Source: Escherichia phage vB_EcoM_swi3. Taken from it: a stretch of 52,782 nucleotides of DNA. The stretch lies in sequence record MT768059.1. One strand, 5' to 3'. Positions 38,427 to 40,653 of this stretch are shown one piece after another. The notes below the pieces were generated by a model. That model was not told the DNA's origin. It made no database searches and saw only the letters and a list, made by a program, of their open reading frames with translations. Within the stretch, counting starts at the first letter, position 1; each line of letters begins with the position of its first letter. The position numbers were made by a program, and so were the translations under genes.

Positions 38427-39019
38427 TAAAACAGTTCCTTTTGAGCCGGGTTAACGTGTGCGTCGATGATGGCCTGGATGTCAGGTGCTTTCCATCCTTC
38501 AGGCTTAACAATATCCTGACCAGACTTATGCTTGCTGTTGCTTGCATCAGGCTTAGCGCGTTCTTTCGCCATGTTAGCAGCCTGTACAGCATCCCATGCT
38601 GCGTCAAGTGGCCAGTTGTTGTTTGCACACCAGGTAATCAGGTGGATAATTAACTGGGCCAGACGGTCGCAATGAGTGTCTTCAGTATCCTTAACGTATA
38701 CAATAAGGCCATCAGCATCGAAACGGTCCATAAATCCGCATGGCGTAGTTAACAGAATAGGATACTCAAATTCGTTGGTGAACCATGCAGTCTGGTCATA
38801 CAGGTATAACGTACCTGCAGCGATGTAAATTAAATCTACAATACCGTCTAAGAATCCAGCTTTATCGCCGTCCTTCTTAGCTTGTTTAATTTCTTCCATC
38901 TCCTCAATAAGACGGTCGTAGCGAAGCTTGAACTCAGGTTTACCGCCTTGACTAACAGGCTTGAGGTCAAACTTCTCATGAAAAGCGGTAACGCCTGCAG
39001 CAATTTTACTGAATCGCAT
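38426..39019 (-). CDS. putative MazG-like (all-alpha) nucleoside triphosphate pyrophosphohydrolase
   Basis: ~197 aa from ATG at 39019 after GGAG; EExxE motif (LIEEMEEI) and downstream acidic helix (DGIVDLIY). Confidence 0.45.
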   Translation of the reverse strand: MRFSKIAAGVTAFHEKFDLKPVSQGGKPEFKLRYDRLIEEMEEIKQAKKDGDKAGFLDGIVDLIYIAAGTLYLYDQTAWFTNEFEYPILLTTPCGFMDRFDADGLIVYVKDTEDTHCDRLAQLIIHLITWCANNNWPLDAAWDAVQAANMAKERAKPDASNSKHKSGQDIVKPEGWKAPDIQAIIDAHVNPAQKELF

Positions 39020-39404
39020 TTCGTAACTCCTTACAAACAGTTTCGATAAACTTACGTTTAATTTCTGTAGACCAGATAACATGACGAGCCTGTTCTAAAG
39101 TGTCCCAACGTTCTTTACCCACAGGAAAGGGAACAATGAAAAGGCCGGTACGGGATATGCGCTTGATAAACGGGAATTTACATCGCATGGTTGTTTCAAA
39201 CTTGATAAAGTTGGTTTGCACTTCGCGTGTAAACTTGACCTTATCAAATTCATGTTCAAGAGTTTGAGCAAGGTTGCATACTTCCTGGAAAGAAGATGTG
39301 GGTAAGTAATCTTCGCGGCCGACGGTGTTCACGTAGTCGATTTGGCCTTCGAGTCGAAGTATCCAAATCCTGTAATAAGCTTCAGCAACACGTTGTAGGT
39401 TCAT
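39006..39404 (-). CDS. hypothetical protein
   Basis: 132-aa ORF downstream of promoter 39431..39459. Confidence 0.45.
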   Translation of the reverse strand: MNLQRVAEAYYRIWILRLEGQIDYVNTVGREDYLPTSSFQEVCNLAQTLEHEFDKVKFTREVQTNFIKFETTMRCKFPFIKRISRTGLFIVPFPVGKERWDTLEQARHVIWSTEIKRKFIETVCKELRNAIQ

Positions 39405-39430
39405 TGTATCTCTCCTCTAAAAGATAACTT

Positions 39431-39459
39431 ATTATACCACATCACTCTCTAGTGGTAAA
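39431..39459 (-). promoter_or_regulatory. sigma70-like promoter with extended -10 (TTTACC-N17-TATAAT, TGG upstream of -10)
   Basis: Reverse complement reads cTTTACCACtagagagtgatgTGGTATAAT. Confidence 0.5.
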
Positions 39460-39480
39460 GCACTTTTTACGCTTCTGGTA

Positions 39481-39515
39481 AAATAAAAAGGACCAGCGTT
39501 AACTGGTCCTTTTGG
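39481..39515 (-). terminator. rho-independent terminator
   Basis: GGACCAG-cgttaa-CTGGTCC hairpin; minus strand reads TTTTTATTT after the stem. Confidence 0.6.
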
Positions 39516-40079
39516 CAGGGTGGCGTAAGGAGATACAAGGCATCGTAACTATGCAACCAGGCAGCGCATATGAGATTGGCCAAAAGACTTACCATTTTAA
39601 TCCCCGCGACGAGACGAAAGGAGGTGTTATCGAGTAGCCAATCACATATGCGTTACTTGCTGTGTGCTCTTACCGCGGAAAGTATAGAGCGTTGCACTTA
39701 TCACACCGATGGAGTGGCAAAAGCACACAGCGAGTACAACCTTAGTTGTGGTGTCTTAGCACCTGAGTTATTGTGGATAACCTGCACCCGACGGGTGTCA
39801 AAAAGATACGCCAAAACACCACAACTAAAATTGTGACCGCCGTCTACACCAGGCGCCTGGGGTCAAGGTAGCGAGCCAATACCCTTTTCAGCGTCGGAGG
39901 AATCGAACCTCACACATCACGGCTTTTACCAAATCTCGGTCAGCGAGCAGAATTGAACTGCATTCACTGGACACCCTCACTGTTTCAACACACCAGGCTT
40001 AATTGATTGTTGATAAGAAGAGAGATGTAAGGATGTCCATTGAATGCACCTCCGTAGAGGTGCGTTCAGATCAGCGCTA

Positions 40080-40547
40080 TTATTCAGCAACTTCTTCGTT
40101 GTCGCCTTCGATCGCGCCAGCCAGTTTAGCAGCTTCAGCTTTAGCAGCTTCTGCTTTCTGGCGAGCTTTTTCAGCTTTCTCTTCAGCTTTGCGAATCTGC
40201 TCAGCAGCTTTCGCTTCGGCTTTTTCAGCTTTGATGCGAGCACGCTCTTCAGCTTTACGCTGTTTTTCAGCGGCTTTAGCAGCATCGCGTTCTGCTTTAG
40301 CGGTATCAACACGCTTAGCCAGAACCTTACCAGTGGCTTTACGCCAGTAGGTCAGCTGGGAAGAAACAGTACCACGGGACATTTCGGTAGTGGCAACAAC
40401 TTCGTCCATAACGTCAGAGCTGGACTTGCCTTCTTCATGGGCTTTATCAGCCAGGTCCCATACATAACGTGCACCAGTACCAGCTGCCGGATACAGTACG
40501 CCGTTAACTTCTTCTTTACCAGTTACAAAAGTCAGTTTCTCGCTCAT
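40080..40547 (-). CDS. protein with Ala/Lys/Glu-rich repetitive C-terminal tail (histone H1-like low complexity)
   Basis: ATG at 40547 after GAGGAA; C-terminal ~70 aa of AKAEK/AEKA-type repeats with acidic end. Confidence 0.5.
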   Translation of the reverse strand: MSEKLTFVTGKEEVNGVLYPAAGTGARYVWDLADKAHEEGKSSSDVMDEVVATTEMSRGTVSSQLTYWRKATGKVLAKRVDTAKAERDAAKAAEKQRKAEERARIKAEKAEAKAAEQIRKAEEKAEKARQKAEAAKAEAAKLAGAIEGDNEEVAE

Positions 40548-40653
40548 AATTTTTTCCTCGTCTACAGGGCTTAATGTTTGTTCGTTACGTGAGTTAATAT
40601 ACGTCATTTAAAAGAGTGTGTAAACACCTTTTTTAAACTTTTTTCATTAGTGT

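Follow-up and report, generated by a model that had tools for sequence, protein, structure and literature searches.

The minus strand of Escherichia phage vB_EcoM_swi3 (sequence record MT768059.1; its 52,782 nucleotides, analysed in full, are called the window here) encodes a 128-nt RNA element at 39961->39834, in the untranslated gap that follows a 'histone-like' gene. The element carries two hairpins that resemble the T-arms of transfer RNA (tRNA). A first-pass annotation of the gap had noticed a single such motif and left a degenerate tRNA, a tRNA-like structure or another noncoding RNA as its possible source. The feature is real: it belongs to a widespread new tRNA-like RNA family of phages and is more interesting than that annotation proposed. 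We hold it to be very probable that the element is a functional structured RNA of a new, previously undescribed phage family. As judged from sequence, it is a structured minus-strand RNA with tRNA-type T-arms that is tied to tRNA arrays and not to any protein gene. The best explanation overall, which we favour with slightly better than even confidence, joins this new structured-RNA family to a mimic of the tRNA elbow that would act in trans.

Phage tRNA arrays are now being reinterpreted as counter-defence tools. If true, a conserved non-decoding tRNA-like RNA within such arrays would be a new player in counter-defence. Easily grown lytic phages of Salmonella and E. coli are among the carriers, which makes the RNA readily testable. 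In addition, the long-unexplained RNAs rnaC and rnaD of phage T4 would gain a comparison group and would no longer stand as an isolated case.

A core with two T-arm-like hairpins

The core consists of the following parts, listed from its 5' to its 3' end.

39947..39961, minus strand: T1, the first T-arm-like hairpin, GCAG-UUCAAUU-CUGC, with a 4-bp stem and a 7-nt loop (consensus UUCRANU)
39938..39946, minus strand: the linker UCGC and the 5' strand of helix P1, UGACC, within the near-invariant CUCGCUGACCGAG
39924..39937, minus strand: the bulge J1/2, GAGAUUUGGUAAAA, near-invariant in the 49 family members
39920..39923, minus strand: the 5' strand of helix P2, GCCG, which pairs with CGGC at 39839..39842
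39897..39911, minus strand: T2, the second T-arm-like hairpin, GAGG-UUCGAUU-CCUC
39852..39896, minus strand: a lineage-specific insertion at the position of P4, with a second UCGCU-ACC motif (GGCUCGCUACCUUGACC) and the hairpin CCAGG-CG-CCUGG
39834..39851, minus strand: a second D-loop-like strand, UGGUGUAGA, then the 3' strand of P2 (CGGC) and the 3' strand of P1 (GGUCA), which forms the 3' end of the core

The motif that had been noticed, GAGGTTCGATTCCTC on the minus strand, is T2. It had been put in the right place, at 39896..39912, with an extent one base too wide on each side. Three things went beyond that annotation: T1, a second and more conserved T-arm lying 50 nt upstream in the RNA; the definition of a 128-nt unit inside a multi-domain RNA of ~600 nt; and the wide occurrence of this unit in other phages. 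The motif by itself carries little weight. GGTTCRANTCC is not above chance, with at least one occurrence in 15 of 100 shuffles of the window, and the shorter GTTCRANTC is seen twice in the 52.8-kb window where 3.2 occurrences are expected, both times within the gap, on the same strand and 50 nt apart. We judge the feature real because of its conservation, its covariation and its match to a model, and not because of the motif alone.

All helices of the core vary in a compensatory manner across the 49 distinct members of the family described below. T1 is the most conserved part: 100% of its alignment cells are paired, three of its four pairs have changed on both sides, and its closing G-C is present in 49/49. 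P1 occurs as GACC/GGUC, UACC/GGUA, CACC/GGUG, AGCC/GGCU and GAUC/GAUC, and all four pairs of P2 have changed on both sides (GCCG/CGGC, GCCA/UGGC, GCCC/GGGC, UCCG/CGGA, GCUU/AAGC and others). T2 is found in 41 of the 49 members, with four of five pairs changed on both sides and the closing G-C kept in 41/41; its stem is GAGG/CCUC in the window, CUGGG/CCCAG in phage S144 and GCCUG/CAGGC in fHy-Eco03, with a loop of 7 nt throughout. At the sequence level, both T1 and T2 possess the closing pair (G53-C61 in tRNA) and the 7-nt T-Psi-C-R-A-N-N loop of a tRNA T-arm, and we infer that the two loops with their closing G-C are tRNA-like T-loop signatures. By eye, the J1/2 bulge resembles a D-loop (..AUUUGGUA..). 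Compact relatives have a short, often GNRA-capped hairpin in place of the P4 insertion. UCGCU(G/A)ACC stands twice in the RNA, at the junction of linker and P1 (39938..39946) and in the insertion (39862..39878, GGCUCGCUACCUUGACC), and the second copy is kept in all five related lineages.

The genome in the window is that of a Rosemountvirus-type (BP63-like) myophage, and a 701-nt query over the gap finds more than 40 Salmonella and E. coli phages at 96-99.6% identity. Loughboroughvirus (S144, SE4), fHy-Eco03, KM and the IMG/VR lineage L023 all keep the gap in synteny. Compared with S144, the core and two domains that flank it in the RNA (P0 and hairpin A, described below) are 87-89% identical, against 73-79% for the genes of ThyA (thymidylate synthase), the helicase and a nucleoside triphosphate pyrophosphatase (NTP-PPase)-like protein. 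These identities point to purifying selection on the RNA region.

Several observations agree on the strand. The minus-strand RNA folds at -233.7 kcal/mol (z=-8.9), compared with -204.5 kcal/mol (z=-5.8) for the plus strand; UNCG and GNRA loops and G.U pairs make sense on the minus strand only; and the flanking promoter and terminator are likewise both minus-strand only.

The RNA family and its relation to known RNAs

CTGCTCGCTGACCGAGATT is invariant in all five related lineages and was therefore used, together with degenerate versions, to scan public collections. Pattern matches with a complementary T-stem came from unrelated phage and metagenome contigs. Their parts follow one order from 5' to 3': T1 (a stem of 4-5 bp, loop UUCRANU), the UCGCU linker, P1 (U)GACC, a 14-nt bulge GAGAUUnUGGUAAA, the 5' strand of P2, a spacer, T2, a short and often GNRA-capped hairpin, nGGUGnAA, the 3' strand of P2 and the 3' strand of P1, GGUC(A). 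Downstream of T1, UCGCUGACCGAG is near-invariant across the family. Altogether ~30 near-invariant nucleotides are unpaired and lie in the junctions, not in the helices. In most phages the conserved unit is ~100 nt, and in the compact forms a U-rich tail follows P1.

A covariance model, R1, was built from a plain MAFFT alignment (A2) of 17 compact metagenomic members, none of them from the window's phage group. On the window, R1 gives a single match, at 39827..39969 on the minus strand, over its full length (model positions 1-111), with 67.3 bits and an E-value of 5e-13, R1 E-values being rough. The window's element has T1, UCGCU, P1, the GAGnUU-UGGnAA bulge and P2, the combination by which the family is recognised, and the four helices are present. 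In A2, 93.4% of cells are paired, compared with 74.2% after shuffling, and 12 of the 18 pairs have changed on both sides; 0/500 shuffles equalled the score, and slid controls gave 34-46%. The 49-member alignment A3, which was fitted to the model and therefore leans towards the structure, has 92.4% of cells paired and 14 of 18 pairs changed on both sides. The column pairs with the highest mutual information are helix pairs, and RNAalifold recovered T1, P1 and P2 de novo from the enterobacterial group.

R1 accepts 83 loci with one copy each, corresponding to 49 distinct sequences and to 38 clusters at 80% identity. The carriers are phage contigs of ~40 to 412 kb. At least 22 of 46 distinct loci have a tRNA gene adjoining the element on the same strand. 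The element often begins 4-5 nt past the 3' end of the tRNA (..CCA-CGAAU-GCAG..), and sometimes a second tRNA follows directly. Three groups of cultured phages carry it: Rosemountvirus and Loughboroughvirus; the Cellulophaga phages phi19:3 and phi13:2, where it follows tRNA-Cys; and N4-like Rhizobium phages, where it follows tRNA-Gln. In all of these the element is unannotated or mis-annotated as small open reading frames (ORFs). Carriers also include phage-therapy candidates against Salmonella and E. coli that were reported with 'no tRNA genes' (PMC7432712). No protein family is common to the neighbourhoods of different lineages, and S144, a relative with InterPro annotation, lacks tRNAs as well as any Ro60, RtcB or RNA-ligase-type gene.

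Bacterial genomes gave little. Among bacterial genome representatives there were 30 pattern matches, 29 of them without an R1 match, and the remaining one (L049) is a Rosemountvirus contig in a metagenome-assembled genome (MAG); 28 of the matches were examined and are without T-stem complementarity. Among E. coli genomes and plasmids, the sole matches were two 53-kb 'plasmids', which are the phage itself. Several of the carriers (L019, L029, L035 and L039) are large phages with long tRNA arrays, L035 having 11 tRNAs within 5 kb. L019 and L029 carry a separate, genuine transfer-messenger RNA (tmRNA) of their own, and in some large carriers ARAGORN calls odd tRNAs with 2-nt 'anticodons'.

Rfam 15 has no entry for the family. 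The first-pass annotation had advised searching the gap with tRNA finders in relaxed mode and with Infernal against Rfam, and had taken silence from such finders, together with the lack of a stable transcript, as grounds for giving the feature up. Scanned at gathering score, Rfam 15 returned nothing on the window, and a permissive scan of 39300..40300 returned only chance matches to microRNAs (miRNAs) and small RNAs (sRNAs). Over the window, the region and eight related loci, the Rfam scans yielded chance miRNA, sRNA and counter-transcribed RNA (ctRNA) matches and genuine tRNAs only. ARAGORN and Rfam are silent because the RNA family is undescribed, and the finder part of the proposed rule was unsound, since it would have discarded a real feature. 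The literature held no description that we could find of the motif or of a tRNA-like RNA family in phage tRNA clusters; the element may be among the 10,006 unnamed phage RNA motifs of a published catalogue (PMC10690425).

The absence of a complete cloverleaf, on the other hand, had been seen correctly: ARAGORN at default settings finds 0 tRNA or tmRNA genes. With thresholds relaxed to 80% it draws only two pseudo-cloverleaves, which are poor, overlapping and mismatched and conflict with the covarying helices. A tRNA identity was rejected on these grounds and on the silence of the Rfam tRNA model. A tmRNA identity was rejected as well: neither ARAGORN nor the Rfam tmRNA model reports one, and there is no CCA acceptor end and no tag reading frame. 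An acceptor-like stem CAGUGAG/CUCGCUG was considered and dropped, its strand being paired in the covariation-supported P0 domain. The core nevertheless shares with tRNA and tmRNA the T-arm hairpins with a UUCRANU loop and a conserved closing G-C, and GG-containing D-loop-like strands; with the tRNA-like domain of tmRNA it also shares the topology of closing stem, D-like strand and long stem. Unlike either, it has no cloverleaf, no anticodon arm and no CCA acceptor end, and its T-arm does not connect to the closing stem's 3' strand.

Could the element be one or more decayed tRNA genes, a functionless relic of a tRNA array? The T-arm-like hairpins, the two poor cloverleaves drawn under relaxed thresholds and the position of family members within tRNA arrays of other phages would all suit such a relic. 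However, the region is more conserved than neighbouring essential genes, a single non-cloverleaf architecture has been kept by compensatory changes in 38 clusters, and the relaxed cloverleaves contradict helices supported by covariation. We regard a relic as effectively refuted. Of the possibilities first offered, the degenerate tRNA therefore falls, for want of a cloverleaf and in view of the strong purifying selection across unrelated phages, while the tRNA-like structure, as a noncoding RNA, stands, with a T-arm kept by compensatory changes in a covariation-supported family.

One of the closest analogues is YrlA (RF02553), a tRNA mimic of the bacterial Y RNA kind (Chen et al. [quoted passage not shown] YrlA genes share a strand with a Ro60/Rsr (TROVE) gene that is at most ~4 kb away (PMC4201824). 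Like YrlA, the core is a small RNA around a tRNA-like T-arm with permuted order, phage occurrence and no anticodon function. Its inner module inside P2, made of T2, a short hairpin and a GG-containing strand, follows the YrlA order (compared with bioRxiv 10.1101/312249 and the Rfam YrlA consensus), but it lacks the D stem and differs in sequence. A bacterial Y RNA of the YrlA type, binding the host's Ro60/Rsr, would account for this succession of closing stem, spacer, T-arm, short hairpin, D-loop-like strand and closing stem, and for the 3' U tail of the compact forms. UGACCGAG also resembles the Ro-binding GGUCCGA of animal Y RNAs, a lead only. To the 5' motif GNCGAAN0-1G, through which YrlA would bind Ro60/Rsr, the core shows a loose likeness (ACCGAGA).

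Several differences nonetheless make this reading highly improbable. The 'acceptor-like' hairpin of the core is only 3-5 bp long, the core has an extra 5' T-arm foreign to YrlA, the UCGCUGACCGAG motif and the 14-nt bulge, and the D stem-loop that is nearly invariant in YrlA is missing. The core lies in tRNA arrays and not in rsr operons, and neither the S144 annotation nor the shared neighbours include a TROVE/Ro60 gene. Reciprocal model tests were negative despite a working control: the Rfam YrlA model detects the YrlA beside the Ro60-like gene of mycobacteriophage Bxz1 (32.5 bits, E=2e-4) and finds nothing at E<=10 on 39300..40300 or on the compact member L017, and R1 gives no match on the Bxz1 YrlA. 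Related phages also grow on E. coli, and E. coli K-12 is not known to have rsr. By sequence and arrangement, the likeness to YrlA is one of design, not of membership.

Two further comparisons concern phage RNAs. T4 rnaC and rnaD (species 1 and 2 RNAs), which also count among the closest analogues, are small stable RNAs encoded, as the element often is, directly after a tRNA in a phage tRNA cluster, and rnaC ends in a T-arm-like hairpin. Their length and architecture are different, and R1 gives no match on T4 70908..71171, which holds rnaC and rnaD, with only weak T-arm matches to T4 tRNAs. The likeness of rnaD is limited to a short UCGCUACC, which may be chance. Set beside the UCGCU(G/A)ACC motif, rnaD (L151) contains GGGUCGCUACCGGUAAG. 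GOLLD and ROOL are large, ornate, phage-borne RNAs often located near tRNAs. They resemble the element here in so far as it is part of a very stable, multi-domain RNA of ~600 nt; they differ in that the latter has no Rfam match, has a conserved unit of only ~100 nt in most phages, and carries extra hairpins that are lineage-specific.

Proposed mode of action and its alternatives

How would such an RNA act? In the mechanism that we propose, each T-loop would dock on its D-loop-like strand to give one or two knobs similar to a tRNA 'elbow', with neither an anticodon nor an aminoacyl acceptor end. Host nucleases that process tRNA and other RNA would excise the element from precursors of tRNA arrays or mRNAs, and it would accumulate as a stable small RNA. 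It would then work in trans by occupying an elbow-binding partner conserved across bacterial phyla, for which RNase P, CCA-adding or T-loop-modifying enzymes, the ribosome and a tRNA-directed defence nuclease are candidates. A partner common to bacteria of different phyla is suggested because ~30 unpaired nucleotides are near-invariant in phages of both Proteobacteria and Bacteroidota; probably, it is one shared by all bacteria. Mimicry or decoy action as such remains a tentative proposal, to which we give clearly less than even odds.

Several findings weigh against it. T2 is absent in 8/49 family members, and its loop is non-canonical in close relatives (UUUGAGU in S144, UUGGAUU in fHy-Eco03), so that a double elbow cannot be essential. 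The two conserved strands were read as D-loop-like by eye, and mutual information revealed no tertiary pair between T-loop and D-loop, only helices and subtype signals. Even at E<=10, neither T1 nor T2 is recognised by the Rfam tRNA model. A complementarity search against E. coli 16S, 23S and 5S rRNA, rnpB and three tRNAs gave nothing beyond chance. In the window's phage the element lies in a 3' untranslated region (UTR), which is compatible with a purely cis role. All homologues were gathered by exact-match patterns around one conserved motif; the sample is therefore biased, and what is said here of the family's range and of its absence from bacterial genomes gives lower bounds. Finally, CUCGCUGACCGAG (39935..39947, minus strand) can fold locally as CUCG-CUGAC-CGAG, which excludes P1. 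This local hairpin, which relaxed ARAGORN took as an 'anticodon arm', could be a conformational switch or meaningless.

The cis role deserves separate consideration. The minus strand of this part of the genome has promoter-like sites only at 40624->40596, before the upstream 'histone-like' gene, and at 39459->39431, before the downstream gene. The former (40596..40624, minus strand) is a sigma-70-like promoter, TTTACA-17-TATATT, with an annotated promoter at the equivalent place in BP63, and is the sole promoter-like site upstream of the RNA. The terminator that had been reported near 39481..39515 is indeed there and is strong: it runs 39513->39486 on the minus strand, with 12 pairs followed by a T run (UAUUUU in the RNA), is kept in all related lineages, and is the only terminator between the two promoters. 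The GC-rich hairpin and U run of an intrinsic terminator are found at the 3' end of the RNA, not at the core. A TTGACA in hairpin A was dropped as a promoter, having no -10 partner. By these sites, the ~560-600 nt are thus the 3' part of the upstream gene's transcript.

With no promoter between the coding sequence and the RNA and one terminator ending both, the RNA might be a 3' UTR whose folds work for the 'histone-like' gene alone, with no role in trans: they would hold off 3' exonucleases, offer a site for processing or, as a terminator module, set the stability of the mRNA. Its linkage to this gene is kept in all five related lineages, and compact relatives have a terminator-like U run after P1/P2. 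Elsewhere, however, the element follows unrelated genes or sits between tRNA genes, where there is no mRNA to protect, and a stabiliser needs a stable stem, not ~30 near-invariant unpaired nucleotides and T-loop signatures across phyla. We therefore consider an exclusively cis-acting 3' UTR unlikely.

The same junction nucleotides could instead mean that the RNA binds tRNA or is catalytic. UGGUA and GGUGnA would then be T-loop motifs comparable to the double T-loops with which T-box stem I or the RNase P S-domain dock tRNA elbows, or the junction would form a ribozyme or a ligand pocket. The location in tRNA arrays would suit this, the GNRA tetraloops of P4 suggest tertiary packing, and no partner protein gene travels along. 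On the opposite side, no Rfam ribozyme, riboswitch, T-box or RNase P model matches, the two conserved strands lie, in our reading, at opposite ends of P2, unlike known interdigitated T-loop pairs, and the conserved downstream gene expected of a riboswitch is missing. On balance, an RNA that binds tRNA or is catalytic is quite unlikely.

Returning to the elbow mimic, one may go further and see in the element the founding case of a class of phage 'tRNA-elbow' RNAs that travel with tRNA genes, are matured like tRNAs and serve as decoy or adaptor for a universally conserved tRNA-recognising machine. This extension is speculative, and we put it at perhaps one chance among several. Such RNAs might weaken host immunity that is directed at tRNA, as with anticodon nucleases and PARIS-like or retron-like systems; alternatively, they might redirect RNase P, the CCA-adding enzyme or the ribosome while infection proceeds. 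Rosemountvirus-like phages lack tRNA genes; on this extension they would have expanded the element into an ornate RNA of ~600 nt with movable modules.

The rest of the RNA and its genome setting

Outside the core, the RNA comprises the following parts in 5' to 3' order.

40046..40063, minus strand: UNCG hairpin GCACCUC-UACG-GAGGUGC, just past the stop codon, with a UUCG loop in relatives
39962..40045, minus strand: P0 domain, with the stem AUUCAAUGGACAUCCUUAC / GUGAGGGUGUCCAGUGAAU and a loop containing the conserved AAGCCUGGUGYGUUG; its 3' strand abuts T1
39740..39830, minus strand: hairpin A, with a 13-bp basal stem UUAGUUGUGGUGU/ACACCACAACUAA and a near-invariant apical module
39656..39734, minus strand: hairpin B, with a 13-bp stem CUCGCUGUGUGCU/AGCACACAGCAAG
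39564..39652, minus strand: hairpin C, with a stem of ~17 bp CGCAUAUGUGAUUGGC/GGCCAAUCUCAUAUGCG and an apical anti-Shine-Dalgarno-like CACCUCCUUU; Rosemountvirus only
39480..39563, minus strand: 3' tail GCCUGGUUGCAU...CCUUGUAUCUCCUUACG and the terminator AAAAGGACCAG-UUAA-CGCUGGUCCUUUU, followed by UAUUUU

The UNCG hairpin has all 7 of its stem pairs conserved, and its loop is UACG or UUCG in all five lineages. For P0, RNAalifold on 7 lineages gives 18 stem pairs, 5 of which have changed on both sides. Three pieces make up the apical module of hairpin A, namely UUUUUGACA, CACCC-GUC-GGGUG and GGUUAU-CCACA-AUAACU; the third contains a perfect DnaA-box-like 9-mer, TTATCCACA. A local hairpin that had been pointed out in the gap, CACCCGTCGGGTG, was confirmed at 39785..39797. 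In Rosemountvirus and Loughboroughvirus the module lies downstream of the core; in fHy-Eco03 and KM (L004 and L005) it is located between P0 and T1 on a different basal stem of 16 bp; and in L023 it is missing. By its positions, the apical module appears to behave as a movable RNA module. Hairpin B is 77-84% identical in Loughboroughvirus and partly conserved in other lineages.

These hairpins bear on a further reading, in which the 560-bp gap is a DNA-level element, either a replication origin or a protein-binding region. Within the replication gene module, the gap has the helicase gene to one side and the polymerase gene to the other, and it contains three long inverted repeats; the perfect TTATCCACA is conserved in four lineages, and the plus strand also folds well (z=-5.8). 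Yet in phage yarpen the A->G changes in hairpin A yield G.U pairs, which keep the helices on the minus-strand RNA only, and the UNCG and GNRA loops are specific to that strand. The DnaA-box-like 9-mer is itself inside the predicted RNA hairpin GGUUAU-CCACA-AUAACU, and the module that holds it is absent in L023 and relocated in fHy-Eco03 and KM. Moreover, the core family occurs inside tRNA arrays of phages of unrelated hosts, which would be senseless for an origin. A DNA-level element is thus very unlikely.

Small protein-coding genes, such as those annotated in several relatives, were likewise weighed. The gap does contain an 88-aa ORF on the plus strand (39570..39836), its longest, and several ORFs of 30-40 aa, and hypothetical proteins have been annotated there in relatives. 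The records of these relatives are discordant in strand, frame and position, however; frameshifts and stops break up the 88-aa ORF in SE13 and yarpen, which belong to the same genus; and no ORF across the gap (39514..40079) is common to the five related lineages. The statement that the gap holds no credible ORF was therefore right, and small proteins have next to no probability as the explanation.

CU-rich motifs resembling an anti-Shine-Dalgarno sequence recur on the minus strand: CAUCCUUAC in P0 (40027..40045), CACCUCCUUUCG at the tip of hairpin C (~39600..39612) and a third, CCUUGUAUCUCCUUACG, in the 3' tail (39520..39545). GCCUGGU is present in both the P0 loop and the tail, and the tail could pair with the 3' strand of P0 as an alternative structure.

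The minus strand holds every gene surrounding the gap, which is bordered by the 'histone-like' gene (40080..40607) on one side and by the next gene (39006..39404) on the other. The 'histone-like' product is an alanine-, lysine- and glutamate-rich protein of 155-175 aa, to which a Pfam search assigned no family. Its gene is 85-87% identical in nucleotides across genera, the highest value among the protein genes of the neighbourhood, and the fHy-Eco03 homologue was reported as virion-associated by mass spectrometry. Pfam searches with the flanking proteins were uninformative except for PRA-PH in a 218-aa protein.

Over 39500..40090 the closest matches are UPF_BP2 and LSE7621, at 99.6-99.8% identity; in vB_EcoM_IntR (OM313460.1), 39500-40090 aligned at the same coordinates with an identity of only 95.8%. 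Near-identical copies of the phage are filed as 53-kb 'plasmids' of two E. coli RefSeq assemblies (NZ_CP067310.1 and NZ_JBVNBN010000003.1), as the 'Bacillota' MAG contig JAEWER010000021.1 (L049) and as 'Listeria phage 220426122051' (PP583539.1). These odd labels likely reflect contamination, misassignment or a carrier state.

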